This document shows, piece after piece, positions 1-52,566 of a stretch of 64,000 nt of DNA. The DNA comes from an uncultured bacterium (lineage in GTDB: Bacteria; JAGOEH01), in contig CAZWDO010000010.1 of NCBI GenBank assembly GCA_964632485.1, positions 62,001-126,000 on the forward strand, in the 5' to 3' direction. The notes beneath the pieces were generated by a model that searched no databases, had not been told where the DNA came from, and saw only the letters and a program-made list of their open reading frames with translations. The translations under genes were made by a program, and so were the position numbers. How positions within the stretch are numbered: the first letter of the stretch is position 1; each line of letters opens with the position of its first letter.

Positions 1-1
1 G

Positions 2-889
2 ATGATCGGAAAGTTCGGTTTCATGTTTGATATACGCATTTAAAAAATAGATATTCCATAGAGTTCCATGATCCTGGTAGGGTGTTCCCACTGAAGGGTA
101 TTGGGTGGAAACAGAAGATTGTTTGTTTTGGAAGTTAAGGCCCGCAAGAATTGAGTGGGCGCGTATTTTAAAATCCAGGGCATAGTCATCTTCAAATAGC
201 TCCATGTCGTCGGTCCAGTTGGAGTCGCAGGCATTGCCTCGCAGTTCCGCTTTATGACTGGTTTTAAACATCGTTGAAATCCGCAATAAAAGATTGTTAT
301 CGATCGAAGTGTAGGCATAATTTGCATTCGCATAGTAGGTGTTAAAACTTCCGGCAAGAATTTCGGCGCTCCTCTCAGGATTGGTTTTGGTGATGATGTT
401 GATCACTCCCGAGATTGCGTTCGTCCCGTAAATTACGGATAGCGGGCCATAGACGACTTCAATGCGCTCGACATTGGCCAGATTAAATTGTCCGCCGGCA
501 TAAAAACCGCCAGAATTTAGCTCATTGATCTGAATTCCATCAACTAATAGAAGTGTTAGATTATTTTGATTTGGAATGCCGCGCTGAAAAACATAACTGT
601 TATACCCTTGGGGATTACGAAATGAAAACCCGGGCAAATCGGCAAGCGCTTCTTCCAGGGTAAAATAACCGTTCGTTTTAATGTCGGCGGCCGTGATAAT
701 ATGAATTGTCGCCGGGGTCTCCTTGATAATCCGCGGAACTTTCTCGACGAGGCTAACTTCCACCCTGGAGAGTTCGAATAAATTATAGCTATAGGGATCA
801 TTTGGATCGCTATGAATTTGATGTGGTATAGCGGCCAGCATCAACCATAATCCACAATCTACGGCCAATCTTCTCGACACTTTTTTCAT
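2..889 (-). CDS. TonB-dependent receptor, N-terminal part (plug domain); runs off the left window edge
   Basis: Missing from the ORF track because it has no stop in the window. Manual translation from ATG 889: MKKVSRRLAVDCGLWLMLAAIPHQIHS...ETPATIHIITAADIKTNGYFTLEEALADLPGFSF...LLLVDGIQINE...NVERIEVVYGPLSVIYGTNAISGVINIITK, with a canonical plug motif; frame stays open to the edge. Confidence 0.9.
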   Translation of the reverse strand, partial: MKKVSRRLAVDCGLWLMLAAIPHQIHSDPNDPYSYNLFELSRVEVSLVEKVPRIIKETPATIHIITAADIKTNGYFTLEEALADLPGFSFRNPQGYNSYVFQRGIPNQNNLTLLLVDGIQINELNSGGFYAGGQFNLANVERIEVVYGPLSVIYGTNAISGVINIITKTNPERSAEILAGSFNTYYANANYAYTSIDNNLLLRISTMFKTSHKAELRGNACDSNWTDDMELFEDDYALDFKIRAHSILAGLNFQNKQSSVSTQYPSVGTPYQDHGTLWNIYFLNAYIKHETELSDH

Positions 890-1093: not shown

Positions 1094-1122
1094 TTGACAC
1101 ACCGGATTTTATTATTTATATT
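1094..1122 (+). promoter_or_regulatory. sigma70-type promoter of the TBDT operon
   Basis: TTGACA (1094-1099), 17 bp, TATATT (1117-1122), preceded by an A-tract. Confidence 0.75.
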
Positions 1123-1142
1123 GCTGTTAATGGAATATGCAA

Positions 1143-1198
1143 TGTTTGAATAAACTAAAATATGATATTTTTAAAGAGTTTTTTAGTTTATTCAAACA
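1143..1198. promoter_or_regulatory. perfect 18-bp inverted repeat, candidate ROK repressor operator
   Basis: TGTTTGAATAAACTAAAA (1143-1160) and its exact reverse complement TTTTAGTTTATTCAAACA (1181-1198), 20-bp spacer, between the promoter and the RBS AGGAGG. Confidence 0.65.
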
Positions 1199-1230
1199 AT
1201 GAAGAAACTTAACACTAACAAGGAGGCCGA

Positions 1231-4200
1231 ATGATTGCCTGGCGCCGTCTGTTTTTTTTAGGGTGGTTGACCTGGTTTTGCTGTTTCATTCCAGGAACCC
1301 TCTGGTCAGCGAATGGCAAACTCGTGGGACGGATCACAGACCGTGAATCGCGTGAAGCCCTCGTCGGGGCCAGCGTCATAATTGTCGAACAATGGCTCGG
1401 CGATAAATCTTTTCCGCTCCAAACCCTTCAGGGAGCCGCCAGTGACGGCGATGGATACTTCGTTCTGACGAATGTGCCCCCCGGTACCTATAATATCCGC
1501 GCCCAGATGATGGGATACCAAACCCTGGTAAAACAACAGGTGCGCGTAAATTTGGATCGCACCATCACGGTGGATTTTCCATTAGTCCTCAGCGCGATAG
1601 AAGTGGCTGAACAAGTTGTGGTCGCGGAAAAAGAGGTGATTAAAGCCGATATCTCAGGTACTCAGGAAATCATTGTGACTGATCGGATCGATCAAACTCC
1701 GACGACTCGCATGGATGAGTTTATCAATAAAGTAAAAGGTGTTGAATTGAAATCCACGACTGACGGAAATGGTTTAAGTATTCGGGGGGGGCAGATCCGC
1801 GAGACCGATATCCGTCTTGATGGCGTTTCGATGCGTGATCCGCGATCCGATAACTCCTACCTTTCGCTCAATTCCACAACGATTGAGGAAATCCAGGTAC
1901 TTACCGGCGGTTTTGAGGCTAAATATGGCGATATGCGTTCAGGTCTGGTCAATGTCGTTACCCGGGAGGGCTCACGGGAAAAACTGGATATCAATTTCAA
2001 AGTCGATATGACGCCCAGTGGGCAGCAAAAATATTTCGGTAGCGATCCCTGGGGGTCCGGTTCGCTGATTAACCGTGTGTTCGCCGATACCTCACGGGGC
2101 GACAGCTCCTGGTGCTGGCTGGGTACGGTAGGTGATACTTCTGTTCCTGCCGATCTGCGCTATTTCAAAGGCTGGAATAAATCCACCGAAGGCAAAAACG
2201 GTTATGATGCGATCGGCTTAAGCCGTACGACCAAGCTGACGCCGGATCAGAAACGAGATTTATGGTTATTCCAGCATCCTCAATATAATTATAACGACGA
2301 CCGCGATATTTTCTATGAAGGCTCGATTAGCGGTGGGTTGCCCGGCGGCTCGATTCCTTTACTGGGAGGGTTTCTTAAAAACACAACCTTTATTTTAGGC
2401 GCTAAATTTGAAAACACTCAATATGTCTTCCCGTTGGGACCTCGCGATTCTTATCAGGACTGGAATCTGTCTTTAAAGCTGACGACCCGTTTTGGCAATA
2501 AAAAAGTGTCTATTAACGGCATGAGCGCTAAAATCAGTTCCATTACCACCGGGCGGCCTTCCACCTTTGGCGGCGCTTTGCTTGATAATTCAGGCCGTTT
2601 CGGTTTTATGAACAATTCCGAAGCTTCCGTTATTACTCAAGCCGGTTTGCTGGGCGGGAACGATGGACTCAAACAGATGTTCAATAAAAGCCGTCTGCAA
2701 TTCTATGATCTTCGCTATCATATCGGCGGGATTAAATTTACCCATACTCTTTCCAATCGGACATTCTATACCGTTGAAGCGCAATTTAACTATACTGATC
2801 ACAACCTGTCCCCCTTTAGTCTCGACAGCACCCGCGAAGATGCCTGGGTGACGATCGAAACTCCTTCCGTAACGGCATCCGGGCAAGATACGGTACTGAG
2901 TATCCGTGTGTTGGATGTTCCCTCGGGAGGTTCTCCCAATGCTTCCACTAACTGGGTGACCGATATTACCGATTTTTTTTGGGTCTATGGCGGTTTGCAG
3001 TCCGAGGATTCTTCTTATTCCTGGGCGGCTCATGTCAAAGCCGATTATACTACTCAGTGGGGCAAACACCATCAAATCGAGAGCGGTCTCGCCCTGCGCT
3101 ACACTTATCTGAGTGTGAATGCCGGAACCTGGCTGCAATCCAAAAAAAGCTGGACGCCCGATACCTGGAATTATTACCAGGAGCATCCCATTGATATGGC
3201 GTATTATCTCCAGGATAAACTGGAGTTTGAAGGCATGGTTGCCAATATAGGATTGCGCGCCGATTACTTCAATCCCATGAAGAAAAGCTTCTCTGTGTCC
3301 CATCCCTTGGATTTAGATTACGCCGGATTCTATAATAATGTCTATACCTATTTGCCGGGTGATTTTGGTTCATGGGAACGGTGGGAAAAATTCCGCGAAT
3401 TGCTGGAAGAACCTACCGGATGGCCGACCCACGGTGATAATAGTCAACTGAAACTTTCCCCGCGTCTCGGAGTCTCTTTTCCGATCACTGTCGCCAGTAA
3501 ACTCTATTTTAACTATGGACATTTCTACCAGAAACCCAATGTCTCCTTCCTTTACAATCTTTCTATTTTCCCCGGCGGAGTGATCGCGCCGACGCCGGAA
3601 CTGCCCATGGCTCGGACCGTTGCCTATGAATTCGGCTATGAACAGCGATTGCTTTCTCAATTTTTAGTGAACCTGACCATGTATTATAAAGACATAAAGG
3701 ATGAACCGCTGGGACGGACTTTTGTCGATTACAATGAAGAAATTTATGTAACCAAATATTTCCCCGATGCCTATCGGGATATCCGTGGAATTGAGTGCCG
3801 ATTTGAAAAAAACCTGGGTACATATTTTACTTTCTGGAGCAGTTATGAATATATGCTGGTCAGTTATGGCGAAACGGGATTGAGCACTGTTTATGAAAAC
3901 CGTCTTAAAGCCGCGGAAGAAGCCCGTAGCGCCAACCTCTATACGTCTGACCTTCATCCTTCCGCCCAGGGCAATATCAATTTTCATGTTCCCGAACGTT
4001 GGGGGCCTGCCTTTGGGTCCTGGCATTTTTTGGGTGGCTGGAACTCAAATTTCTTCGTTGAATGGCGCGATGGCGGACATCAGATTATCAATCCCGATCA
4101 ACCCGTGGACCAGCAAAAGAAAATTGATGTTGTGGATTATTCCAATGTTGATTTCCGATTATCGAAACTATTTAAAACACCATGGGCCAGTGTTGAATTC

Positions 4201-4434
4201 GTTCTTACTATCAAGAATCTATTGAACCAAAAACGTCTGAGTTACTGGAATATGACGACTACTCAGTATGATCGTTACAAACAATCGCTTCATTTGCCTT
4301 ATGAAGAGGGTGAAGAACAAGGCAGTGATAAATTAGGCGAGTGGGATAAGGACCATATCGATACCGGCTGGTTCACCGCGCCTTTATTTCTTAACCCGCG
4401 GCAATTTTATTTCGGCCTGCGATTTTCATTATAA
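1231..4434 (+). CDS. TonB-dependent transporter with N-terminal carboxypeptidase-regulatory-like domain
   Basis: Signal peptide; GKLVGRITD...LVGASV...DGYFVLTNVPPGTY domain; plug IEEIQVLTGGFEAKYG..SGLVNVVTREG; barrel motifs LSPRLGVSFPI and YFNYGHFYQ; C-terminal PRQFYFGLRFSL. Confidence 0.93.
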   Translation: MIAWRRLFFLGWLTWFCCFIPGTLWSANGKLVGRITDRESREALVGASVIIVEQWLGDKSFPLQTLQGAASDGDGYFVLTNVPPGTYNIRAQMMGYQTLVKQQVRVNLDRTITVDFPLVLSAIEVAEQVVVAEKEVIKADISGTQEIIVTDRIDQTPTTRMDEFINKVKGVELKSTTDGNGLSIRGGQIRETDIRLDGVSMRDPRSDNSYLSLNSTTIEEIQVLTGGFEAKYGDMRSGLVNVVTREGSREKLDINFKVDMTPSGQQKYFGSDPWGSGSLINRVFADTSRGDSSWCWLGTVGDTSVPADLRYFKGWNKSTEGKNGYDAIGLSRTTKLTPDQKRDLWLFQHPQYNYNDDRDIFYEGSISGGLPGGSIPLLGGFLKNTTFILGAKFENTQYVFPLGPRDSYQDWNLSLKLTTRFGNKKVSINGMSAKISSITTGRPSTFGGALLDNSGRFGFMNNSEASVITQAGLLGGNDGLKQMFNKSRLQFYDLRYHIGGIKFTHTLSNRTFYTVEAQFNYTDHNLSPFSLDSTREDAWVTIETPSVTASGQDTVLSIRVLDVPSGGSPNASTNWVTDITDFFWVYGGLQSEDSSYSWAAHVKADYTTQWGKHHQIESGLALRYTYLSVNAGTWLQSKKSWTPDTWNYYQEHPIDMAYYLQDKLEFEGMVANIGLRADYFNPMKKSFSVSHPLDLDYAGFYNNVYTYLPGDFGSWERWEKFRELLEEPTGWPTHGDNSQLKLSPRLGVSFPITVASKLYFNYGHFYQKPNVSFLYNLSIFPGGVIAPTPELPMARTVAYEFGYEQRLLSQFLVNLTMYYKDIKDEPLGRTFVDYNEEIYVTKYFPDAYRDIRGIECRFEKNLGTYFTFWSSYEYMLVSYGETGLSTVYENRLKAAEEARSANLYTSDLHPSAQGNINFHVPERWGPAFGSWHFLGGWNSNFFVEWRDGGHQIINPDQPVDQQKKIDVVDYSNVDFRLSKLFKTPWASVEFVLTIKNLLNQKRLSYWNMTTTQYDRYKQSLHLPYEEGEEQGSDKLGEWDKDHIDTGWFTAPLFLNPRQFYFGLRFSL

Positions 4435-4450
4435 CCCGGAGGCAGCCTAC

Positions 4451-6568
4451 ATGAAAAATATTTTATACTTGCTGTTAATTATCGGCGCGCTTAATGGCGC
4501 GGTTCGCGCCCAGAAAGATTATAACGGGCCACCCATGTTTCTCAATGTGAATGCCATCGGCTGGGATTTGAAAAAACTGAACGGCGAGGGTCAGTTCACC
4601 AATCAATATAGCTGGATGCTTACCGGCAACGATAAAGAGAATACCGAAGTTTTTTATTGGCCGCGCGATCAGTGGCATTCGCAGATGCTATACCAGGTTT
4701 TTAATCCGATTTGTTTTGACGATAGCGGGTTCACCAATCAGAATGGCGAACATAAAGTGATTCCGTATAAATGCGTGAATGGGGGAGTGAATGATTTTTC
4801 CTGGGAAATCCGTCGCTATCGTCCACCTTATGTGACTGTGGATGATATTCCATTGTACCAGGAATACCGGTGGGAAACCGATCCGAATCTCTCCAGCGAC
4901 ATCGTCTGTATCTGGGAGGACGTACTGCCAAATTACGGTATGCGCGTCCAGGGGAAAATTTTTGCGTTTAGTAACCCCGATCATGGTGATTATGCGATCT
5001 ATCAATTGACTTACAAGTTTACCGGCGAAACGAAACGACCGTTGCAGGATCCCGCAGAGGATGATTACTTTCCTGATCAAACCGTGCGTTTATGGTCGCC
5101 TCTGTCGTTTAGTCTTGGACCGAGCAAAGGCGGTGAATATGGCGCTCATGGTTTTTTTGCCTATGAAGCGGAGGATGATCTGGACAGTTGGTTTGAAAAA
5201 TCGTCGCAATTGGTGACAAACCAGGCTAGGAGCGATTTAAAAGTGGCTTACTATTTCGATTACAAAATGGCCGGGATTGCGGCCTATCCCAATGGCAGCA
5301 ATGATGATCTCGGTGATCCTATACGGGACGTCAATACCGGCTATCTGCTTTCGACCCAAATTCCCGGATTTGCTTTGCTTTATTCACCGACGGGAACCAA
5401 CCAGCAACAGGACGATCCCAATCAGCCCTATTCCATACCTCATGCGGGGATTGTCAATGATCTCTGGGGCCGCGCCGATCAGGGGATACGCGACACTTAT
5501 ATCGGCCATGATGATCGCGGCAAGTTTCCTAAAGATTGGATCACCGAGGGACGCGCCACCAAGGCCGAAAAAGGGCCAATGCGATTTATTACGGTCGGAC
5601 CCTATACATTGACTAAAAATACCGGCGCGGCGCCCTTTGACCCCGCCCATCCCTATGATTCATTTACCGTGGTCTATGCCATCGGTTCCGGTTCCATTTC
5701 GCGCGATATGGCCCGGCAGACTGGGAATGCCTGGATCAATGGCCAACTCTCTGATGCCCAGAAGGATTCTATTGTACTGACCGGTACCGATTCACTTTTT
5801 AAAACCATAGATCGCGCCTACTGGGCCTGGAATCAGGGGCTTGATATCGATGATCCCCCGCCGCCGCCCGATTTGGAAGTGCGTAGCGATGCTGACCGCA
5901 ACATTGTTCGTTGGTCTTATCCCGATAATTCCTATTTTAACGATCCTGACACCCATATCGATGATTTTTACGCCTGGCGTATCTACCGCAAAAAAGGCGC
6001 TGCATACGTACTAGATATGTGGGCCAAAGACCTTGATGAAGAGTGGCAAATGATTTACGAAACGACGGATCGCAACCAACTGGAATACGTAGATGCCGAT
6101 GTCGTGCGCGGCCAAAGTTACTATTATGCAGTAACTGCGGTTGACGACGGCCAGCATAATAAAAGCGGTTTGTTCCCTGGCAAACGTCTGGAAAGCTCCC
6201 GATATGCCAATATGAGTGGTATGCCGGTAATTCCATTTCAAGCTGGCCTGGATGTGTCCGATCAAATGCTGGTCGTTCCCAATCCGAAAACGATTCGCTC
6301 CCGGGGAGAATTCGCTTTCACCGGCGACCCTAACCGGATTTTGTTCGTGAAATTACCCTATCAATGCGAACTGCGGGTATTTACCGAGACCGGGGATTTA
6401 ATTACTACGATCCATCATCAGGGCACTGATCAGGAAGTTTGGGACTTAAAAACCAACAACAACCAGTATATCATGAGTGGATGCTATATTTTAGCGGCCA
6501 CTGAATGCCGGACCGTTGAAAGTCGATCCTTGCCAGATCAATTTGTCAAGTTCGTCGTGGTTCGTTAA
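4451..6568 (+). CDS. secreted protein with FN3-like domain and C-terminal T9SS/FlgD-Ig-like sorting domain
   Basis: Signal peptide (AVRA/Q); PPPPPDL...YVDADV..GQSYYYAVTAVD FN3-like segment; C-terminus VVPNP...LRVFTETGDLI...WDLKTNNNQYIMSGCYI...KFVVVR. Confidence 0.75.
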   Translation: MKNILYLLLIIGALNGAVRAQKDYNGPPMFLNVNAIGWDLKKLNGEGQFTNQYSWMLTGNDKENTEVFYWPRDQWHSQMLYQVFNPICFDDSGFTNQNGEHKVIPYKCVNGGVNDFSWEIRRYRPPYVTVDDIPLYQEYRWETDPNLSSDIVCIWEDVLPNYGMRVQGKIFAFSNPDHGDYAIYQLTYKFTGETKRPLQDPAEDDYFPDQTVRLWSPLSFSLGPSKGGEYGAHGFFAYEAEDDLDSWFEKSSQLVTNQARSDLKVAYYFDYKMAGIAAYPNGSNDDLGDPIRDVNTGYLLSTQIPGFALLYSPTGTNQQQDDPNQPYSIPHAGIVNDLWGRADQGIRDTYIGHDDRGKFPKDWITEGRATKAEKGPMRFITVGPYTLTKNTGAAPFDPAHPYDSFTVVYAIGSGSISRDMARQTGNAWINGQLSDAQKDSIVLTGTDSLFKTIDRAYWAWNQGLDIDDPPPPPDLEVRSDADRNIVRWSYPDNSYFNDPDTHIDDFYAWRIYRKKGAAYVLDMWAKDLDEEWQMIYETTDRNQLEYVDADVVRGQSYYYAVTAVDDGQHNKSGLFPGKRLESSRYANMSGMPVIPFQAGLDVSDQMLVVPNPKTIRSRGEFAFTGDPNRILFVKLPYQCELRVFTETGDLITTIHHQGTDQEVWDLKTNNNQYIMSGCYILAATECRTVESRSLPDQFVKFVVVR

Positions 6569-6587
6569 CCCGGGAAGGAGTCTCCCT

Positions 6588-7577
6588 ATGAAAAAATTTA
6601 TCCTCTTGATTATATTTATTGGTTTTATCAATCCGGCCCGGGCGGATATCATTAAAAAAGGGCAGACCGGATTCCGTTTTCTGGAACATCCGGTGGGCGC
6701 CGACGTCATGGGACGCGGAACTGTGGGTTTAGCCCTGACGCGCAATGCCAATGCGGCTTTCATCAATCCGGCGGGCCTGGCTTGGATGACCCAGAGAAAC
6801 GATTTCGCCTTTAATTATACAAAAGGCATTGCCGAGATCAATCATAGTTCTGCGGCACTGGCTTTTAATCTGCAATCGTTTGGAGTGTTTGCGCTGGATG
6901 CGTTGTTTATGGATTATGGGGACTTAGTGGAAACGCGGGTCGCTGCCAATGAAAACGGCTATGAAACCCTGGGAACCTTTTCACCCCAAAATTATGCTTG
7001 GGGGCTTTCCTATGCCAAACAGGTCAGCGACCGCTTCTCTTTTGGGGTCAGGGTCAAATTGGCTCACGAAAATGTCGTTGATTCGAATGGTGTTGCCATC
7101 GACGGTGAATATGTCGCAAAAGAGTATAATCTCACTGAAGCGGCGGTCGATGTCGGTGTCGTGTATGATTTTCTCTATCGGTCTATCCGTTTTGCCGCAG
7201 TTATGCAGAATTTTTCACGTGAAACCCGCTATCAGGACCATAAATTCCCTCTGCCTTTCGCCGTGAGTTTCTCACTGACGATTGATCCTCTTTCGTTTTT
7301 CAAAACCGACTGGAATGGTCATGATCTGATTATGGCTTTTGAAACACGGCATCCGCGTGATTTTAAGGAACGTTATAAAATCGGCCTGGAATACACCTAT
7401 CATCGTCTACTGGTTTTGCGCAGCGGTTATATGGGGAATTATGACGAGCGTGGCATGACCATGGGCGCCGGACTGTTTTACCAGTTGCGCAATATTCGGT
7501 TCCGCTTTGATTACGGCTGGCAGTATCATGGTCTTTTCGATAATGTGCATGTAGTTTCCTTCGGCATTGGGTATTGA
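6588..7577 (+). CDS. PorV/PorQ-family (UPF0164-like) outer-membrane beta-barrel
   Basis: Start moved to ATG 6588 (RBS GGAAGGAG); signal peptide; FLEHPVGADVMGRG...AAFINPAGLA family signature; terminal aromatic residue (SFGIGY). Confidence 0.8.
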   Translation: MKKFILLIIFIGFINPARADIIKKGQTGFRFLEHPVGADVMGRGTVGLALTRNANAAFINPAGLAWMTQRNDFAFNYTKGIAEINHSSAALAFNLQSFGVFALDALFMDYGDLVETRVAANENGYETLGTFSPQNYAWGLSYAKQVSDRFSFGVRVKLAHENVVDSNGVAIDGEYVAKEYNLTEAAVDVGVVYDFLYRSIRFAAVMQNFSRETRYQDHKFPLPFAVSFSLTIDPLSFFKTDWNGHDLIMAFETRHPRDFKERYKIGLEYTYHRLLVLRSGYMGNYDERGMTMGAGLFYQLRNIRFRFDYGWQYHGLFDNVHVVSFGIGY

Positions 7578-7584
7578 GGACACT

Positions 7585-8544
7585 ATGATGCACGGCGGAG
7601 ATGCCCGATATTTGAAAAAAATCAACACGAATCGGTTATTGAACCAGATTCGGTTGCTGGATCCGGCGGATGCTCCTGCGTTGAGTGAGCTGACCGGATT
7701 TCAGCCATCAACGATTACGAATCTGCTACGTGAATTGAAACAGTGGAATTTGATCCGATTGCAGGGACGGGGTGCCTCCACACGGCTGGGGGGAAAACCT
7801 CCCCAGTTGTGGGAATTGAATCCCAATTATGGTTTCTTCCTGGGTTTATGGATTCTGCCCGGAACTCTCTGTCGTCTTGTTTTAACCAATTTTAAACGCG
7901 AAATCCTTTTTCAAGAAGAATATGTGTTGAAATCAACGGAACTGCCGGATAACGTTCAGGTGCGGGAATGGATCGAAGCTGTTTTAAATCGGCATAGTGT
8001 TGACGCTGAATCTCTTTTGGGATTGGGTATCGCTTTACCAACAGATATTTATCAAAAAAAAGCATATCTGTATGTCAAGGAATTAAATAATGGGTTTAGT
8101 TGTCCAATCCAGCTTACAACCCCCTCACGCGCCGGCGCCATGGCTTTGAAATGGTTTTACCGACCTGCTATGGATTGCGCAAATATTGCGTATTTTACAA
8201 TTGAGCCCGGGGGTACGGGAATCTGCCTGATGGGTTCCCAGATTATCAATCATCACCTTGTGGAAGGAGCGAGCGGTCTGGCTGGAATGCATGAAATTCC
8301 CCTGCTACGTCCAGGTACTGAACTGTTGAGTTTCGAGAAGGCTGTTTCGTCCTTGGCATGTTGGTTGGACCCCGGCTTTGTTGGCTGGTCCGATTTGACG
8401 GCTGAAAATCTTGAAGAGCAGCGCGCGGTGGAGATTGAAGTCAACCCGGCACGAACGATGATGGTGAAAATGAACCCGCTTAAGCAAAACACTATGCCAC
8501 TGGGCGCCATTGCTATGCATTACTGTAGATTTTTTATGGCGTGA
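7585..8544 (+). CDS. ROK-family transcriptional regulator (NagC/XylR-like)
   Basis: YLKKINTNRLLNQIR...LSELTGFQPSTITNLLREL HTH; GGKPPQLWELNP linker; divergent ROK domain (GLAGMHEI); RBS GAGGA. Confidence 0.85.
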   Translation: MMHGGDARYLKKINTNRLLNQIRLLDPADAPALSELTGFQPSTITNLLRELKQWNLIRLQGRGASTRLGGKPPQLWELNPNYGFFLGLWILPGTLCRLVLTNFKREILFQEEYVLKSTELPDNVQVREWIEAVLNRHSVDAESLLGLGIALPTDIYQKKAYLYVKELNNGFSCPIQLTTPSRAGAMALKWFYRPAMDCANIAYFTIEPGGTGICLMGSQIINHHLVEGASGLAGMHEIPLLRPGTELLSFEKAVSSLACWLDPGFVGWSDLTAENLEEQRAVEIEVNPARTMMVKMNPLKQNTMPLGAIAMHYCRFFMA

Positions 8545-8574
8545 GCGGGGCGTTTTTCAGCATCGTCAGTATAT

Positions 8575-8677
8575 AGATTGTTAACTGCCGTCTCGTTGAA
8601 ACTTTACGAGGGCACGGCGCACTCTGTCCGATCTTTTGGCTATGGGCGAAGATTGTTACCTGCCGGCCCGCTGAAAC
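8575..8677 (+). repeat. 28-bp imperfect direct repeat pair
   Basis: AGATTGTTAACTGCCGTCTCGTTGAAAC (8575-8602) vs AGATTGTTACCTGCCGGCCCGCTGAAAC (8650-8677), 24/28 identical. Confidence 0.6.
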
Positions 8678-8700
8678 CGGCTTATTGAAAGGAGAATAGA

Positions 8701-9648
8701 ATGGCTGTGATTGCGATGGATTTAGGCGCCACGAAATTGGCGATCGCGATTTTTGGTGAAAACGGTTCTATCGAGCATAAAGAAATTTTTCTGCTTTTTC
8801 GCCGTCAGGGCAAGGAAGTGGGAGAACTGGTCGGCCAATCTTTGAATAAATTATTGGAAGTGGCCGATGAGCGGGAACTCAATATCGAGGGTATCGGTGT
8901 ATGTGTTCCCGGAATCTGGTATCGTAAAAAAGGTGTGGTTTGGGCGCCCAATATTCCGGGATGGGAAAACTATCCGCTTTTGGAAGAGATGCAGTTGGCG
9001 CTGGGTAAACGGTCGATACCGATTCAAATCGATAGCGATCGGTCGTGCTACATTTTGGGAGAAACGTGGCTGGGTGCTGCCAAAGGTTCAGAAAATGCCA
9101 TCTTTCTGGCGGTCGGCACGGGGATCGGCGCTGGCATTATGGTCGATGGCCATATCGTTCGCGGCTCATCGGATATCGGCGGAGCTATCGGTTGGCTTGC
9201 CCTGGAGCGTCCCTTTAAAGATATCTGGAAATCGTGCGGCTGTTTTGAATATCAGGCATCCGGTGAAGGAATCGCCCGCATGGCCCGCTATTATGTGTCG
9301 GAAACTCTCGACTACCAAGGGGAGTTAAGTACTAAATCGTTGGATCAGATTCATACACGCGATGTTTTCGAAGCCTGGAAAAATAGTGATTTGATCGCTG
9401 AACGGGTAATTCGCAATTGTATTGAACTTTGGGGCATGACTGTGGCAAACCTGGTGAGCTTATTCAACCCCGAAAAAATCATTTTTGGAGGAGGGGTTTT
9501 TGGCCCCGCTGCCCAATTCCTGCCCGATATCTATGAATATGCGGCTCTTTGGGCCCAACCGATAAGTATTCGCGAAGTTAAGCTGGAAGTTTCTCTACTG
9601 GGTGGCGATGCCGGTTTGATTGGCGCCGGTCGGTTAGCCAGAAACTAA
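8701..9648 (+). CDS. ROK-family sugar kinase
   Basis: DLGATK ATP motif, VGTGIGAGI, SCGCFEYQASG, GGGV, GLIGA; no HTH. Confidence 0.92.
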   Translation: MAVIAMDLGATKLAIAIFGENGSIEHKEIFLLFRRQGKEVGELVGQSLNKLLEVADERELNIEGIGVCVPGIWYRKKGVVWAPNIPGWENYPLLEEMQLALGKRSIPIQIDSDRSCYILGETWLGAAKGSENAIFLAVGTGIGAGIMVDGHIVRGSSDIGGAIGWLALERPFKDIWKSCGCFEYQASGEGIARMARYYVSETLDYQGELSTKSLDQIHTRDVFEAWKNSDLIAERVIRNCIELWGMTVANLVSLFNPEKIIFGGGVFGPAAQFLPDIYEYAALWAQPISIREVKLEVSLLGGDAGLIGAGRLARN

Positions 9649-9673
9649 TTTTTATCGATTGATTGGAGCTATA

Positions 9674-10858
9674 ATGATGAATTCTTCACCGTCAAATCGT
9701 TTCCGCGGTTTGTTTGTGGCTGCCTGTCTGGCCATGCTGAGCTTTGGAATTGTCATGACTACGCTGGGTTCTATTCTGCCATCCCTATTTGCAAAAATAC
9801 CCGAAATTTCGAAAGCGGATGCGGGATCCCTCATTTTATTAATGTCCCTTGGGATTTTGATTGGTTCTCTTTTATTCGGACCGATTGTCGATCGGTTTGG
9901 TTATAAAATGATTTTAGTTGTTGGCGTGTTTCTAATCAGTCTATGCCTGGTGGTGATCGCTTGGAGCGAACAGTTGTTGATATTGCGAATCACGTTGTTT
10001 GTGAATGGATTGGGTGGTGGGATCATTAATGGGAGCGCTAATGCCCTGGTGGTGGATATTGCCGAAGGCAAAAATAAAGGAGCGCGTTTGAGCCTGTTGG
10101 GTATATTTTTTGGACTGGGAGCCGCCGGCATTCCTTTTCTGTTAGGCTCGCTGGAACCCTACCAGATCGCCTATGAGGTGATTTTGACTGCGACCTCCGC
10201 TTTGATGGTTCCCCTACTTATCTATATCCTGATTTTGTCTTTTCCTGCCGCTAAAATGAAACAGGGTTTTCCTTTGCGGGATGGGATTCAATTACTCAAG
10301 CATCCGACCATGTGGATTTTGGGCGCCATTCTTTTTCTGGAGAGCGGACTTGAAATCACTTCCGGTAGTTGGGCCACCACGTTTCTTAAAGAGAATCTGG
10401 CCGTCGCGCACGGTTTGAGCCTCTATCTGCTTTCATTCTACTGGCTGGGCATGATGCTGAGCCGGTTGGCATTAAACTCGATTTTATCGCGATATTCCAA
10501 CCAGCGGGCGCTTTATGGTAGTTTTGCATTGGGTATCGTTGGCGCTTTATGCTTGATCGCGACGACCCATGTTTTTATTGCCGGCATCGGGATTTTCTTA
10601 TTAGGCGCGGGATTCGCCGGAGCATTTCCGATTGTGCTGGGTTTTATCGGCGCAAAATATGCAACGTTATCGGGCACTGCTTTCAGTCTGGCTTTTGTGA
10701 TGGCGCTTTGCGGAGGGATGCTGCTTCCCTGGCTGACGGGTATTATGGGAGGAATTTTTAGCCTGCGGGCTATGTTATCCCTGATTCCGGCGTTGATACT
10801 GATCCAGGCCGGGTTGCTCGCGTTGTTCTCCCGGCTTTCCACTTCCCCCACCGATTGA
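9674..10858 (+). CDS. MFS sugar transporter (GlcP/FucP-like)
   Basis: About 12 hydrophobic segments, motif A GPIVDRFGYK; RBS GGAG before ATG 9674. Confidence 0.88.
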   Translation: MMNSSPSNRFRGLFVAACLAMLSFGIVMTTLGSILPSLFAKIPEISKADAGSLILLMSLGILIGSLLFGPIVDRFGYKMILVVGVFLISLCLVVIAWSEQLLILRITLFVNGLGGGIINGSANALVVDIAEGKNKGARLSLLGIFFGLGAAGIPFLLGSLEPYQIAYEVILTATSALMVPLLIYILILSFPAAKMKQGFPLRDGIQLLKHPTMWILGAILFLESGLEITSGSWATTFLKENLAVAHGLSLYLLSFYWLGMMLSRLALNSILSRYSNQRALYGSFALGIVGALCLIATTHVFIAGIGIFLLGAGFAGAFPIVLGFIGAKYATLSGTAFSLAFVMALCGGMLLPWLTGIMGGIFSLRAMLSLIPALILIQAGLLALFSRLSTSPTD

Positions 10859-10869
10859 GGGGGCTTTTT

Positions 10870-10910
10870 CCCTCCCCCCCCGGTTAGGGGGAGAGGGCAG
10901 TGTGAGGGGG
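10870..10910 (-). repeat. REP-like palindromic element, copy 1
   Basis: Minus strand CCCCCTCACACTGCCCTCTCCCCCTAACCGGGGGGGGAGGG; 10870-10897 matches 11782-11809 in inverted orientation at 27/28. Confidence 0.7.
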
Positions 10911-10967
10911 TTCTTGACAGGGCTTTCCTGTATAAACCTATTGAAATAATAAAGAAAGGATATAATA

Positions 10968-11732
10968 ATGAAACTGGCCAAAGAATGGTTGAAACATGTC
11001 TATGCAACAATGGAAAAAATTGAAGGTACACAGGAATTGGCGATCCGTCAAGCCGCTGAATTAATGGCGGCAACGATTGAGGCTGGGCGGTGGGTACACA
11101 CTTTTGGCTGCGGTCATGCTACATTGCCGATAGAAGAAATGTATCCCCGAATTGGCGGATTCGTGGGATTTCATCCCATGATTGAGTTGCCGCTTTCATT
11201 TTTTACCCATATTGTGGGTGAAATGGGCGTCCACCAGTTTGTGTTCCTTGAACGTGTGGAAGGTTATGGACAACAGATCATGAAAAGCTATAATTTTGAT
11301 CCACGTGATACAATGTGGATTTTTTCTCATTCCGGAATCAATAACGTTAATATTGATATCGCGTTGGAAGCCAAAGCCCGTGGCATGAAGATCATTGTAA
11401 CCGGTTCCGCAGCGGAATTTGCCGGCAAACCCACTCGCCATTCGTCGGGCAAACAGATTTTCGAACTGGCGGATGTGGTGATTGATTCCTGTGTTCCGGC
11501 CCAGGATGCTTCCGTGGATCTGATTCATCATCAGGACAAGATCGGGCCAATTTCCACCATGGCCTCGGTTACTGTTGTCTGGATGACGATTACAACCGTA
11601 GCTGAGATTCTGGCCGAAAAGGGCGTGAAGCTTTTTATTCATCCATCGCATAACGTCCCGGGAGACACTACAGCCCATGACCGTTTGAGCGCCGCTCTTG
11701 CTGAATATAAACGCCGTATTGCCGGAGTGTAA
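10968..11732 (+). CDS. SIS-domain sugar-phosphate isomerase-like protein (UPF0309 type)
   Basis: VHTFGCGHA, EEMYPRIGG, ERVEGYG, IFSHSGIN, ADVVID. Confidence 0.88.
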   Translation: MKLAKEWLKHVYATMEKIEGTQELAIRQAAELMAATIEAGRWVHTFGCGHATLPIEEMYPRIGGFVGFHPMIELPLSFFTHIVGEMGVHQFVFLERVEGYGQQIMKSYNFDPRDTMWIFSHSGINNVNIDIALEAKARGMKIIVTGSAAEFAGKPTRHSSGKQIFELADVVIDSCVPAQDASVDLIHHQDKIGPISTMASVTVVWMTITTVAEILAEKGVKLFIHPSHNVPGDTTAHDRLSAALAEYKRRIAGV

Positions 11733-11781
11733 CGCTATTTAGTGTTGCTTAGGCTGAAGGCGCAAGGATCATCTTTTAATC

Positions 11782-11809
11782 CCCTCTCCCCCTAACCGGG
11801 GGGCGAGGG
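11782..11809 (+). repeat. REP-like palindromic element, copy 2
   Basis: CCCTCTCCCCCTAACCGGGGGGCGAGGG. Confidence 0.7.
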
Positions 11810-11834
11810 TAGAAAAAAATAAGGATAAAAATAA

Positions 11835-11863
11835 TTGACTTTTAATTGAATTTGATGTATAAT
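11835..11863 (+). promoter_or_regulatory. sigma70-type promoter
   Basis: TTGACT, 17 bp, TATAAT. Confidence 0.75.
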
Positions 11864-11993
11864 GATATTGGAACATTCTTAGCGATTGATCGGCTAGTTT
11901 TTTCGATTTATTCGATTTGAACGGGCTATTTTAATAATGGATACGGAATTGGCGGAATCATTAACGCCTAAAGATATAAGAGAGGAAAAAAAG

Positions 11994-13664
11994 ATGCCGA
12001 AACCTTACACGCGCCGTGATTTTATCAAGATTGCCGGATTGAGCGGGATCGCTCTGTCTGTCGGTTGCCGGGTCACTCAACCTTTAAGCTGCATCATCCG
12101 CCAGGGATTGATTTTTGACGGTACTGGCAAGGATGGAGTGGTCGCGGATATTGGAATTCGCGGCGATCAGATCGTAGCGATCGGGAATTTGGCCCAAGCG
12201 AAAGCGGATAAGGTAATCGAAGCCCAGGGGAAAGTCGTTGCCCCGGGATTTATTGATATTCATTCCCATACGGATATAGAACTGCTGGTCAATCCATTAG
12301 CTGAAAGTAAAATCCAACAGGGCATCACGACGGAACTTTGCGGAAATTGCGGTTCCTCTTATTTCCCCATGAATGAGGAAGACAGGGTTAGCGCCTCTGC
12401 CAGCCTTACTGAACAATATGGAATTGCCGTGGATTGGACGACCCTGGCCGGTTTTTTTGAACGGTTGGAGAAGCAAGGCATTGGCATCAACTATGCGACT
12501 CTGACCGGGCATGGCGATCTGCGCGCCAGGGTTGTAGGTAAAATGGATGTTCAGCCCTCTCCTGAACAGTTGTCAGAAATGAAACGGGTCTTGATTGAAA
12601 CGCTGGAACAGGGCAGTTTTGGTCTCTCGACCGGGTTGGAATATGCGCCGGGCAGTTACGCCAAAACCGAGGAACTTGTGGAGCTATGTCGTGAAGTCCA
12701 AAAACGTGGGGGGCTTTATGCTACTCATACGCGCAATGAAGACGCAGAAATCATATCAGCGATTGAGGAAGCCTTGCAAATTGCTCGTGATGCGCAAGTG
12801 CGCACCGAAATATCGCATTTGAAAGCATGCTATGAACCCAGTTGGGGATTGCTGGAACCGGCTCTTGAGTTAATCAATCGCGCGCGTGATAATGGTTTGT
12901 CGGTACAGGCAGATCGGTACCCTTATACGGCGTTCAGCACTGGATTGAGCGCTTATTTGCCATTGTGGGCTCGTCAGGGTTCCACAACAGAGATTTTACA
13001 ACGATTGCAGGACAAATTGGAGCGCGCGAAAATCCAGGAACACGCCGAATCGCGGGGGAAACTGATCGGTGGGTGGAAAAATGTCGTTATTTCATCAATC
13101 GTTTCGGAAAAAAATCGGTATTGGATGGGACGTTCCATTGAGGAAGCCGCGCTGGAAGCCGGAAAGGATCCTTTTGATTTTATCGCCTGGCTGCTCACAG
13201 AGGAAGAGTGTCGCGTGGGTATTGTCGGCTTTGCCATGACGGAAGAGAACCTGGCCAAGGTTTTGACTCAACCATGGGTCTCTATTGGTTCCGATGGTTC
13301 GGCAGTCGCTCCGTCCGGCCCGTTGAGTAAAAACAAGCCGCATCCACGCGCTTACGGAACTTTTCCCCGGGTATTAGGACTTTATTGCCGCGAAAAGAGG
13401 TTGTTCCCTTTAGCCGAGGTGATTCACAAAATGACATGGCTTCCGGCTGAATTTATCGGGCTGAAACAACGGGGGAAAATCGCCGAGGGTTTTTTCGCTG
13501 ATTTGGTCATTTTTTCGTCCGAAACTATTATCGATCAAGCGACCTATGTGGACCCCCATCAATTTCCAGTAGGGATTGACCAGGTCTTCGTCAATGGTCA
13601 GATAGTCGTTCAGCAGCAGGAACATACACGGGCAACACCCGGCAAAGTACTGCGTTCCGTCTAA
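11994..13664 (+). CDS. N-acyl-D-amino-acid deacylase family amidohydrolase with Tat (probably lipoprotein) signal
   Basis: Start moved to ATG 11994 (RBS GAGGA); TRRDFIK Tat motif then SVGC; PGFIDIHSHTD, GNCG, STGLEYAPG, DRYPY, GSDG, PHPRAYGTFPRVLG. Confidence 0.9.
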   Translation: MPKPYTRRDFIKIAGLSGIALSVGCRVTQPLSCIIRQGLIFDGTGKDGVVADIGIRGDQIVAIGNLAQAKADKVIEAQGKVVAPGFIDIHSHTDIELLVNPLAESKIQQGITTELCGNCGSSYFPMNEEDRVSASASLTEQYGIAVDWTTLAGFFERLEKQGIGINYATLTGHGDLRARVVGKMDVQPSPEQLSEMKRVLIETLEQGSFGLSTGLEYAPGSYAKTEELVELCREVQKRGGLYATHTRNEDAEIISAIEEALQIARDAQVRTEISHLKACYEPSWGLLEPALELINRARDNGLSVQADRYPYTAFSTGLSAYLPLWARQGSTTEILQRLQDKLERAKIQEHAESRGKLIGGWKNVVISSIVSEKNRYWMGRSIEEAALEAGKDPFDFIAWLLTEEECRVGIVGFAMTEENLAKVLTQPWVSIGSDGSAVAPSGPLSKNKPHPRAYGTFPRVLGLYCREKRLFPLAEVIHKMTWLPAEFIGLKQRGKIAEGFFADLVIFSSETIIDQATYVDPHQFPVGIDQVFVNGQIVVQQQEHTRATPGKVLRSV

Positions 13665-50149: not shown

Positions 50150-50356
50150 AGTCTTACATTATAGATTATTTTAGTGGAAAAGTCAAATATTTTTTTTGGA
50201 ATTTAATCTCCATTTTTCGATTATTCTGGAATTCAATGTGTGAAAAGTCAAAAAAAAATAGTTGACAGAATTAATTTTTTAATTTATTTATTACTATTAA
50301 GACAGCATTGTTGGCTGTGTTCGTTTTACTCAAAACCTTATTGAAAGGAGTTGCTG

Positions 50357-52390
50357 ATGTTGCGACACATTTTGATCGGGATGGTTTTACTGGGGATGAT
50401 GGGTGTAGGAGTAAGCTGGGGACAGGATGCCATTGAAGACTTGATGAGCATGGATTTAGAGGAATTACTGAATCTGGAGATTACCGTGGCCACGGGAGCT
50501 AAATCCCTGACTCCACGAGAATCTCCCGGGATTGTCAGCGTGATTACTGAGGAAGAAATCCGTAGCAGCGGCGCTCGGGATTTGATTGACATTCTCTATC
50601 GAGTGCCTGGTTTTGCATTCGGCACTGATGTGGAAGGGGTGGAAAATGTGGGTTTCAGGGGAAACTGGGCCCATGAAGGAAAAATGCTGTTACTGTTGGA
50701 CGGATTGGAGAATAATGAGCTGTCATACAATACGTTGATTCTCGGTAACCATTATCCGGTCGATCACATCAAGCGTATTGAAATTATTCGGGGTCCCGGA
50801 TCTTCCATTTATGGCGGCAATGCCGAATTAGGCGTAATCAATATCATCACAAAAAGCGCGGAGGATTTAAACGGAGTGGCAGTGAGCGCTATTTACGGTC
50901 AATTGGAAGATACCTTCCGACGGCGCAATATTAGTTTGTCTGCCGGGAAAAAGATGGGTGAACTTGGCTTGACACTCCATACTTTTTTTGGGCAGGGTAA
51001 TAAAAGTGACCGAGACTATACTGACGGCGCCGGGAATTCATACAATATGAAGGAGAATGCTGACCAGAATCCATTGATGGTGAATCTGGGGCTGAATTAT
51101 CGGGGGTTATCTGTCCGCGGGATGATGGATCGCCAATCAACGACTCAACGTAATATTTTTGGCGCTAATATTCCCCCTGCGGCTGATCCTTTACCCACTC
51201 ATTTTCACTCGTATCACGGCGCGATTAAATATGCCTGGCAATTGAATGAAAAACTGACAATCACGCCGGCATTGAGATTCCGCAGACATTACGCGTATCA
51301 TGCATTAGACGAGGACGTGGCGAAAATAATGGCATTGGATGCCGAAAATGCCGCCCTTTTTATCTATGAACGCTATACCCAGCGAATTACAGAAGAGGTG
51401 ACAGCATCCTATGATTTCAATTCAAATTTGAATGTTCTGGGCGGCGTACAGTCTTATCAGGAATCTGCTCATGCCGGAGAGGATGATCGCAGTAATTTTG
51501 CCGGTCCTGATTTTGATTATTCTAAAAAAGAGATTAGTTTTTCGGATGTGTCCGCTTTCGCCCAGATGTTGATGAAAACATCGCTGGTCAATATTACCGC
51601 TGGTGGACGCTATGATTCCCATAGTGAAGGCAGCAGCGCTTTTGTTCCCCGTCTGGGATTGACGCGCGTCTTCTCCGATCTGTATCATGTGAAACTTCTT
51701 GCATCTCAGGCATTTCGTACGCCATCCCTTATTAATGTAGATTTGAACGCGGATATTAAATCGGAAAAAACAACGGTTTTTGAGTTGGAAAGTGGTATCA
51801 AAATTAATGCCAATATGTTCCTTACTGCGAATCTGTTCGACATTACTCTTAAAGATGCTATTATTTATGGTGTCGATGATAATGGCGAATTTTATGCCAA
51901 TCGGGAAAAAACCGGCAGCCGGGGAGTGGAATTTGAATTCCGCTTCCAAACCGGGATGAATAGCCAGGTTTTCAGTTACTCTTATTATTCCTCGGAAAAT
52001 AAAAATAAAATCGAAGACTATATGGTTCCCCGTCTTGAGGGTGAAGAAGGCTTTATGGATGACCTGGTACTGGCTTTTCCCAAACATAAGTTTACACTGA
52101 GTTCCACCTATCAGTTGTCTTCGCAATTTACCTTTAACACGAATCTTATCTATCAATCTAAAACCTATGGCTATGCCAGCGGAACTGTTCAGGAATTTAA
52201 TTTTACATTGCTGGATGCGTATCTGCGCTGGCATCATTTCGGTGTGAAGGGTTTGGAATTGGGAGTCGGATGCTATAACATTTTTAATGTCGATTACTTT
52301 TTTATTCAACCCTATAATGGGGGGCATAATCCGATTCCGGGGATGGGCCGCGAATGGCTTGTTCGCTTAAGTTGGTCCCCGACAAAATAA
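50357..52390 (+). CDS. TonB-dependent receptor (short, COG4771-type)
   Basis: Signal peptide; LMSMDLEELLNLEITVAT; IKRIEIIRGPGSSIYGGNAELGVINIITK; C-terminal GREWLVRLSW. Confidence 0.92.
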   Translation: MLRHILIGMVLLGMMGVGVSWGQDAIEDLMSMDLEELLNLEITVATGAKSLTPRESPGIVSVITEEEIRSSGARDLIDILYRVPGFAFGTDVEGVENVGFRGNWAHEGKMLLLLDGLENNELSYNTLILGNHYPVDHIKRIEIIRGPGSSIYGGNAELGVINIITKSAEDLNGVAVSAIYGQLEDTFRRRNISLSAGKKMGELGLTLHTFFGQGNKSDRDYTDGAGNSYNMKENADQNPLMVNLGLNYRGLSVRGMMDRQSTTQRNIFGANIPPAADPLPTHFHSYHGAIKYAWQLNEKLTITPALRFRRHYAYHALDEDVAKIMALDAENAALFIYERYTQRITEEVTASYDFNSNLNVLGGVQSYQESAHAGEDDRSNFAGPDFDYSKKEISFSDVSAFAQMLMKTSLVNITAGGRYDSHSEGSSAFVPRLGLTRVFSDLYHVKLLASQAFRTPSLINVDLNADIKSEKTTVFELESGIKINANMFLTANLFDITLKDAIIYGVDDNGEFYANREKTGSRGVEFEFRFQTGMNSQVFSYSYYSSENKNKIEDYMVPRLEGEEGFMDDLVLAFPKHKFTLSSTYQLSSQFTFNTNLIYQSKTYGYASGTVQEFNFTLLDAYLRWHHFGVKGLELGVGCYNIFNVDYFFIQPYNGGHNPIPGMGREWLVRLSWSPTK

Positions 52391-52400
52391 GAGCATCCCA

Positions 52401-52444
52401 CCGGGTCTTAATTTCTTTGATAAAAATTAAGACCCGGCCTTTTT
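52401..52444 (+). terminator. intrinsic terminator
   Basis: CCGGGTCTTAATTT-loop-AAATTAAGACCCGG then CCTTTTT. Confidence 0.75.
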
Positions 52445-52566
52445 GTTGATTATTTTTATTATTTGACAAAACTGCTTCATTGAATTATATTATAGTTAGT
52501 CACGAGGATAATAATACGCGTCATTCCTTGATGACTGGTTTCTTTAACTTAAGCAAGGGGAATTTT

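Follow-up and report, generated by a model that had tools for sequence, protein, structure and literature searches.

The 64,000-nt stretch of DNA analyzed here (the window, within which all positions of the locus are counted) comes from an uncultured bacterium and carries near its start eight codirectional genes on the plus strand, separated in order by 16, 19, 7, 156, 25, 109, and 261 bp. The first encodes a TonB-dependent receptor of 1067 amino acids (aa; 1231 to 4434) with a CarboxypepD_reg-like N-terminal extension, a Plug domain, and a TonB barrel with long loops. It is followed by a 705-aa secreted protein with a signal peptide (4451 to 6568), hereafter the partner, described from its predicted model and a profile of its tail class, and by a barrel (6588 to 7577), which the NF033709 model assigns to the PorV/PorQ family and a tree places in a cassette-specific clade. 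The remaining genes encode a short, 319-aa ROK-family repressor-like protein with a helix-turn-helix and a partial ROK domain (7585 to 8544), a ROK sugar kinase identified by a hidden Markov model (HMM) family match (8701 to 9648), an MFS permease matching MFS_1 (9674 to 10858), a SIS-domain protein of the PRK02947/UPF0309 family (SIS_2; 10968 to 11732) that is a distant relative of Streptomyces NagS, and a Tat-signal amidohydrolase of the D-aminoacylase family (11994 to 13664) with an RR motif and a best match to D-aminoacylase at an E value of 1e-87. These open reading frames, with their Pfam and NCBIfam family calls, agree with the layout in the original prediction, which was made from the DNA letters alone: eight codirectional genes, the first four less than 20 bp apart (gaps of 16, 19, and 7 bp), a 705-aa protein ending in VVPNP...KFVVVR, and neither a SusD nor a glycoside hydrolase (GH) in the locus.

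The receptor, partner, and barrel genes form a unit that occurs 13 times in the source genome (4.45 Mb, 98% complete). There are 28 PorV-family matches in this genome, 14 of them at E<1e-44, and 13 of these 14 strongest genes sit in cassettes with a large receptor and a secreted protein of 625 to 1339 aa; the 14th adjoins PorU, a C25 peptidase. The 13 best matches of the window receptor are the 13 cassette receptors, the next 8 lying outside any cassette, and sequence comparison shows that all 13 partners are homologous beyond their tails. The gene order is barrel-receptor-partner in one of the 13 cassettes. Two other genomes of the phylum contain 16 and 15 PorV-family genes. The cassettes on contigs C32, C2, and C6:40638 (loci L117, L121, and L114) additionally contain a lipoprotein-like gene of 213 to 246 aa and a protein of about 400 aa, which has a TIG domain in C32, where the cassette lies downstream of B12-binding and URO-D-like genes.

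The same arrangement is found well beyond this genome. A search with the partner gave 264 matches; the 120 listed are 48 to 71% identical and labeled Delongbacteria, KSB1, Marinimicrobia, Ignavibacteriales, and others, and the partner profile matches 3343 clusters (50% identity), 258 of them at E<=1e-30. Conservation was counted over 80 orthologous loci, with those having room for the neighboring gene as denominators (75 for the receptor and 74 for the barrel). A receptor lies at most 2.2 kb upstream of the partner in 72 of 75 loci, two of the three misses having a larger gene inserted and one ending in a GH18 gene, and the barrel is directly downstream of the partner in 73 of 74. For the loci of a distant paralogue, the corresponding counts are 40/44 and 70/75. 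Genes seen between receptor and partner are an S8 protease with a generic type IX secretion system (T9SS) tail at L039:6198-9929 and a 552-aa gene at L051:7787-9445. The receptor, tail, and barrel trees of the 13 paralogues agree in Mantel comparisons (rho 0.69 to 0.73, p 0.0002), an agreement that points to joint inheritance and not to contact. With 13 copies in one genome, neighbors kept in orthologous loci, and paralogue trees that codiverge, the trio is a conserved unit, as the original prediction needed it to be, and the genomic evidence for a dedicated three-gene unit is strong.

The barrel belongs to the PorV/PorQ family without being PorV or PorQ proper. It matches NF033709 over its full length at 155.7 bits (cut-off 90) and stays below the equivalog cut-offs for PorV (62.8 of 250 bits) and PorQ (85.1 of 220 bits). 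A branch with 91/97 support separates the 13 cassette barrels from both the PorU-linked PorV and a protein of the same genome that we take to be FadL-like from its N-terminal motif; the neighbor of PorU is thus another PorV-family gene outside the cassette clade. In a structure search, the only solved relative of the barrel was PorV. The family match, the solved relative, and the separate clade all agree with the earlier assignment of this barrel as PorV/PorQ-like and not FadL-like. Additional PorV-like genes, at C19:69007-70821, C19:2069-4756, C7:73514-75832, C10:15500-16504, and C41:5557-6696, follow large secreted proteins with no receptor; they represent another kind of cargo-barrel pair, and some of these barrels have long C-terminal extensions.

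The tail of the partner had been described as a T9SS/FlgD-like sorting domain. As in T9SS type A cargo, a signal peptide is present and the C-terminal tail models as an Ig-like sandwich, but the standard T9SS profile misses it: the tail has no match to TIGR04183 or PF18962 and is absent from the 124 TIGR04183 matches of the genome, 120 of which pass the cut-off. Only 4 of the 13 cassette tails pass TIGR04183, and these do so marginally. The partner tail (residues 601 to 705) weakly matches a PorZ tail HMM (E 0.075) and superposes on the PorZ tail with a Z score of 11.2 and a root mean square deviation (rmsd) of 1.9 over 84 residues. When each cassette tail was left out in turn, all 13 held-out tails scored 67 to 123 bits against the model of the others, and no tail of another protein of this genome scored above 54. 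Among related loci, the cassette tail model is preferred by 76 of 77 partner tails and by 0 of 21 GH18 tails. By these profiles, the cassette tails form a distinct T9SS tail class, and the presence of two tail classes within a single operon is expected if the barrel is dedicated. As for the secretion system itself, the original prediction had proposed looking for sprA elsewhere, and SprA, PorU, and PorV are all found in the genome.

The receptor is large and carries an N-terminal extension but falls outside the SusC family, scoring 41.4 bits against TIGR04056 (SusC/RagA; cut-off 368). No protein of the genome exceeds the TIGR04056 cut-off and none matches SusD (PF07980 and PF12771), in a genome that is 98% complete and with Bacteroides thetaiotaomicron as a positive control for SusC and a positive control likewise for SusD. 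The model of the receptor is a plugged barrel with loops of 50 to 100 residues, and a fold search returned generic TonB receptors at 9 to 13% identity and no close solved structure. The partner has no Cys in its signal region, and a lipobox-like motif occurs in 4 of 120 relatives. Its predicted model is mostly beta, whereas the SusD fold is helical; together with the lack of a SusD family match, this sustains the earlier view that the partner is not SusD-like. The unit resembles the SusC/SusD cores of polysaccharide utilization loci (PULs) in combining a large TonB-dependent receptor with a coencoded surface partner, and in clustering these with a regulator, a permease, and degradative or catabolic genes for one glycan. 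It differs in a receptor from outside the SusC family, in a partner that is an all-beta nonlipoprotein with a T9SS tail, and in having a third, dedicated barrel.

The predicted model of the partner (pLDDT 90.7) consists of a beta-supersandwich at residues ~21 to 415, three helices at 418 to 461, a Pro-rich hinge (DDPPPPPD), an FN3 domain at ~474 to 597, and the T9SS tail. The best structural matches of the supersandwich (Z 15 to 18) are N-terminal domains of GH94, GH65, and GH116 enzymes and, foremost, of GH15 glucoamylase (Z 18.1, rmsd 3.1, 237 residues aligned); mutarotases, lyases, and the periplasmic domain of YidC match more weakly (Z 11 to 12). These structural matches cover the sandwich, and the model lacks the catalytic (alpha/alpha)6 barrel of GH15/GH94/GH65 enzymes. 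We accordingly rejected a GH15/GH94/GH65-type glycosidase or phosphorylase as the identity of the partner. The original prediction had left open whether the partner was a lid or an enzyme; the missing helical barrel weakens the enzyme option, and a lid is what we infer. Between residues 1 and 470, 34 positions hold an aromatic residue in 95% or more of 107 orthologues, which is compatible with a sugar site without proving one, and within the orthologous group the N-terminal domain is conserved as strongly as the tail. Database searches offered little further help: in Pfam, the window partner has no family at E<=0.1 and the 12 paralogous partners have none at E<=1e-4, a PDB sequence search returned FN3 pieces and the weak PorZ match only, Foldseek returned FN3 arrays, and the ESM Atlas yielded unnamed clusters. 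Longer fused forms of the partner were absent from 2987 candidates, which is weak evidence.

Genes neighboring the orthologous units indicate the substrate. We counted them in the 37 "long" loci, out of 80, that have at least 8 kb on both sides. The ROK kinase is present in 27/37, and orthologues of the MFS permease and the SIS protein (68 to 79% identity for the latter) are each present in 26/37; over all related loci, the SIS orthologue is usually divergent and upstream (29 versus 2 downstream). GH18 is found in 14/37, GH9 in 13/37, NagA in 13/37, two types of NagX/HGSNAT-like proteins in 10 and 6, PIG-L in 7, NamZ in 6, and YdjC/ChbG-like and GH35/42-like proteins in 3 each. At least one amino-sugar marker (GH18, NagA, NagX-like, YdjC, NamZ, PIG-L, or GH35-like, with SIS and GH9 excluded) is present in 30/37. 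In 16 of 80 loci the gene immediately 5' of the partner is a GH18, and 21/21 GH18 sequences keep the DxDxE motif. In the source genome, a tailed GH18, GH20, NagA-like, NagX-like, NagB, and two NamZ genes are present at unlinked positions, as is a GH9 (C7:106454-108919, L206) that is an orthologue of the locus-linked GH9 (43%) and is fused to a polysaccharide deacetylase domain. The sole GH18 of the genome (C1:398191-399642, L205) bears a T9SS tail, and its motif is DxxNxDxE in place of DxxDxDxE. Because orthologous loci carry GH18, GH9, NagA, and NagX-like and ChbG-like genes along with the same ROK kinase, MFS permease, and SIS protein, the substrate is likely of the chitin type, that is, chitin or chitosan oligosaccharides. 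The guess of an amino-sugar substrate in the original prediction is supported and narrowed by these neighbors. Two gene associations in related loci stand apart from these counts. Next to the receptor, many related loci (L047, L049, L050, L059, L095, and others) have a further gene of ROK kinase size that lacks a helix-turn-helix, perhaps reflecting separate kinases for N-acetylglucosamine (GlcNAc) and glucosamine (GlcN), and L082, L103, and L106 have a downstream glycyl-radical enzyme scoring as trans-4-hydroxy-L-proline dehydratase, with an activase.

The amidohydrolase, which had been enlisted as a deacylase pointing to the same substrate, does not serve as evidence for it and was rejected as a member of the system: it occurs in 0 of 80 related loci, is preceded by its own promoter-like site, and has D-aminoacylase-type residues. 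It is probably a neighbor outside the system. We also considered and rejected its identity as OngB, a GlcNAc1A deacetylase. Ser at OngB position 292 is set against Thr in D-aminoacylases in the OngB report (PMC12017989), and the amidohydrolase motif shares its Thr with the Alcaligenes-type enzyme where OngB has Ser292 (mapped through the D-aminoacylase alignment); the D-aminoacylase score is 297 bits versus 251 bits for OngB. The SIS protein aligns all five NagS residues (H53, R64, E94, D179, and N228). According to the NagS study, GlcNAc-6P dehydratase activity is reported only for Streptomycetaceae orthologues, and homologues at 26 to 36% identity were inactive (PMC12680351). The SIS protein is about as distant from NagS as those inactive homologues (E 1e-20), and for this reason we do not claim it as a NagS. 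A substitute for NagB is unlikely to be needed, as NagB is encoded elsewhere in the genome.

The region upstream of the receptor gene contains a sigma70-type promoter-like site, TTGACA-17-TATATT (1094 to 1122, plus strand), with 11 of 12 consensus matches. The promoter scan found 39 sites versus 20 expected, so that a single site is weak on its own. A second site, TTGACT-17-TATAAT (11835 to 11863, plus strand), precedes the amidohydrolase gene, and because of it the eight genes are probably split over more than one transcript. Two operator-like palindromes of the form 12-N5-12 follow the first promoter: site 1 (1130 to 1158) is directly 3' of it and has at most 5 mismatches, and site 2 (1183 to 1211) is just 5' of the ribosome-binding site and has 2 mismatches. 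At this threshold (<=5 mismatches), they are the only such sites in the whole genome, and a search for a regulon found the operator nowhere beyond these two local positions. The pair forms a 21-bp inverted repeat (1140-1160/1181-1201) that could form an RNA hairpin. The palindromes presumably resemble XylR-type ROK operators. Support from HMMs for the ROK regulator is weak (ROK E 0.0024, Mlc E 0.0016); its match to three further ROK proteins (~420 aa) encoded in the same genome nonetheless bears out the earlier call of a ROK regulator. An orthologue occurs in 2 of the 80 related loci. The palindromes recur only in L032 (L032:2109 and L032:2234), which has the same promoter hexamers and spacing upstream of its receptor and an orthologous ROK protein; L039 has a ROK match (31%) and lacks the palindrome site. 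The other 79 of the 80 loci have no palindromes and mostly have a LacI or no visible regulator. Site 2 is a probable ROK repressor site.

Gene content, conservation, codivergence, tail class, predicted folds, and neighbor families are observed here; physical contacts, surface retention, sugar binding, and the exact substrate are inferred from them. By analogy with known anchoring pairs, the reading we favor, at slightly better than even chances, is that this is an uptake locus for chitin or chitosan oligosaccharides built on a three-protein outer membrane unit that replaces SusC/SusD, with the barrel holding the uncleaved partner at the surface, so placed that the partner can collect sugar for the receptor. 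The partner would cross the outer membrane through SprA by means of its T9SS tail. The variant tail would then be received by the coencoded PorV-like barrel instead of the housekeeping PorV, escape cutting by PorU, and stay bound, as PorZ does on PorQ. The FN3 stalk and Pro-rich hinge could position the beta-supersandwich over the receptor as a noncatalytic lid that binds the oligosaccharide and passes it on. GH18, GH9, GH20, and deacetylases, linked in relatives and unlinked here, would produce the oligomers and shorten them; GlcNAc and GlcN would enter metabolism by way of the MFS permease, ROK kinase, NagA, and NagB; the SIS protein may act on an amino-sugar phosphate; and the ROK repressor would bind the two palindromes at the promoter. 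Of the original proposal of a C-terminal domain-bearing partner held by its own PorV paralogue as the lid of a TonB-dependent receptor, the trio, tail, and barrel are supported, while anchoring and the lid role are suggested by genomics and the PorZ-PorQ precedent.

Several observations weigh against this reading. We found no experimentally studied member in the literature. Duplication of whole cassettes would by itself make adjacent genes codiverge, the related loci are kin and not independent samples, and the branch support for the barrel clade is below the strict mark of the tool, with long-branched rows outside the clade. GldM and GldN were not detected in the genome, in a search without a positive control, which bears on how the T9SS is powered; the T9SS of this genome is possibly divergent or motorless. 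A SusD-family match occurs in one of three genomes of the phylum, so the unit does not exclude SusCD. There is no chitinase in this locus and the one GH18 of the genome is unlinked and reads DxxNxDxE, GH9 alone is no indicator of chitin, and NamZ (6/37) leaves peptidoglycan fragments as a lesser option. The supersandwich fold is common to mutarotases, lyases, and YidC and is no proof of sugar binding. A complex prediction for the receptor barrel (240 to 859) and partner N-terminal domain (24 to 398) of the smallest paralogous cassette (C22) scored 0.00 against a mark of 0.32 without controls and speaks neither for nor against the reading.

Other roles for the partner and barrel can be weighed on the same evidence. 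The barrel could be a private secretion shuttle, with the partner released as a soluble scavenger that redocks on the receptor, like HasA on HasR. PorU is present in the genome, codivergence of the three genes fits equally well, and PorV itself is a shuttle (PMC10202324); but the released enzymes of the same loci carry the generic tail (the cassette model is preferred by 0/21), and the pairing of every partner with a barrel of its own resembles the retained PorZ and type B cases, which makes this alternative rather unlikely. It is also quite unlikely that the partner is a surface enzyme (epimerase/mutarotase-like, a lyase, or a new hydrolase) converting the substrate at the mouth of the receptor. 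A GH174 enzyme and proteins resembling aldose 1-epimerase are indeed among its structural neighbors (Z ~12), and the 107 orthologues share many invariant acidic, Arg, Trp, and Tyr positions, but the best matches (Z 15 to 18) are the sandwich domains of GH15, GH94, GH65, and GH116, whose catalytic helical barrel is absent here. Homologous partners, moreover, occur in cassettes next to amylase, peptidase, and GHL10 genes and, going by annotation only, in an alginate PUL, a range that one activity explains poorly.

A distinctly unlikely alternative is that the partner and barrel assemble or shield the long-loop receptor without capturing substrate, like BamG-BamH beside BamA. The receptor loops of 50 to 100 residues and the fold shared with the YidC periplasmic domain (Z 11) would suit such a role, as would the example of the BamG barrel, which anchors a surface protein beside another barrel (PMC12611786). 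Each receptor, in contrast, keeps its own strongly diverged partner (625 to 1339 aa), where one expects receptors to have an assembly factor in common, and the N-terminal domain is conserved like the tail within the orthologous group. It is very improbable that the barrel conducts a hydrophobic compound as a FadL-type channel and has nothing to do with the partner tail. PorV and FadL share a fold, and the FadL-like protein of the genome weakly matches the barrel profile (E 5e-4); that profile nevertheless prefers the PorU-linked PorV (E 2e-15), the barrel has its 155.7-bit NF033709 match and PorV as its only solved relative, and the barrel and tail trees agree.

Retention of a surface protein by a barrel, as the favored reading of a partner held at the surface to capture sugar would have it, has precedents. 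PorZ is retained uncleaved by its cognate PorV-like barrel PorQ, PorV itself being a shuttle (PMC10202324). The likeness lies in an uncleaved tail on a cognate PorV-like barrel, the tail here superposing on that of PorZ; PorZ-PorQ and PorU-PorV differ in being single housekeeping pairs for cargo processing with no link to a transporter, whereas here there are 13 paralogous pairs, each adjoining its own receptor. Type B C-terminal domain cargo is anchored at the surface by cognate PorP/SprF barrels (PMC9143113; PMC11285876). That system also has many paralogous cargo-barrel gene pairs in which the barrel anchors the cargo (PMC9143113) but differs in tail class and barrel family, in its adhesin cargo, and in a unit without a receptor gene. 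In a third case, BamG, a FadL-family barrel, holds a surface protein beside another barrel (PMC12611786). The chitin utilization locus of Flavobacterium johnsoniae is similar in that a T9SS-secreted GH18 supplies oligomers (PMC5127042). The closest match in gene order is in a Rhodothermus marinus alginate PUL, where a figure legend gives tonB-hypA-hypB as hypothetical genes (PMC9530828): within the PUL, a receptor is followed by a T9SS type A protein of 726 aa and then by a member of the PorV/PorQ family. It differs in its alginate substrate, the accompanying section proposes no function, and the comparison is by order and annotation alone. A literature search that covered few subscription journals and no supplements turned up no publication in which the trio is handled as one system, and the trio is not mentioned in the available parts of PMC5317091 or PMC8857248. 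The tail-class test, the operator pair, and the exclusion of the amidohydrolase are new here.

Other features surround the locus. Two inverted copies of a 28-bp G+C-rich, REP-like palindromic element (27/28 identical) lie on either side of the SIS gene, at 10870-10897 and 11782-11809. A divergent 655-aa TonB receptor with a Plug and barrel (1 to 889, minus strand; contig C10:60922-62889) shares the intergenic region and is followed by histidine-kinase and receiver-like genes; it looks unrelated to the locus. At 50351 to 53895, a plain 679-aa TonB receptor precedes a protein of 471 aa for which Pfam gives no family at E<=1e-6.

Overall, the trio is real and widespread, an apparently unstudied variant of the theme of a receptor with a surface partner, joined to known T9SS anchoring. 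More tentatively, and at a little short of even chances, it may represent a second and probably old machine of the FCB superphylum for capturing glycans and peptides: a stable three-part complex with a T9SS-delivered, nonlipidated lid and a private barrel reading a separate tail class, of which the copy here would be the chitin version and which is conserved from KSB1 and Marinimicrobia to Ignavibacteria. PUL prediction relies on SusC/SusD pairs, and the three-gene unit is therefore invisible to it. The cassettes also offer a natural panel for the question, raised in PMC10202324, of whether tails are shielded from PorU by their cognate barrels, and R. marinus, as a cultured carrier, makes the reading testable. 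If the reading is true, it would give a purpose to the 15 to 16 PorV paralogues per genome, provide a marker for finding utilization loci and new enzymes in these lineages, and explain polymer import in KSB1, Marinimicrobia, Calditrichia, Ignavibacteria, Kryptonia, and Delongbacteria.

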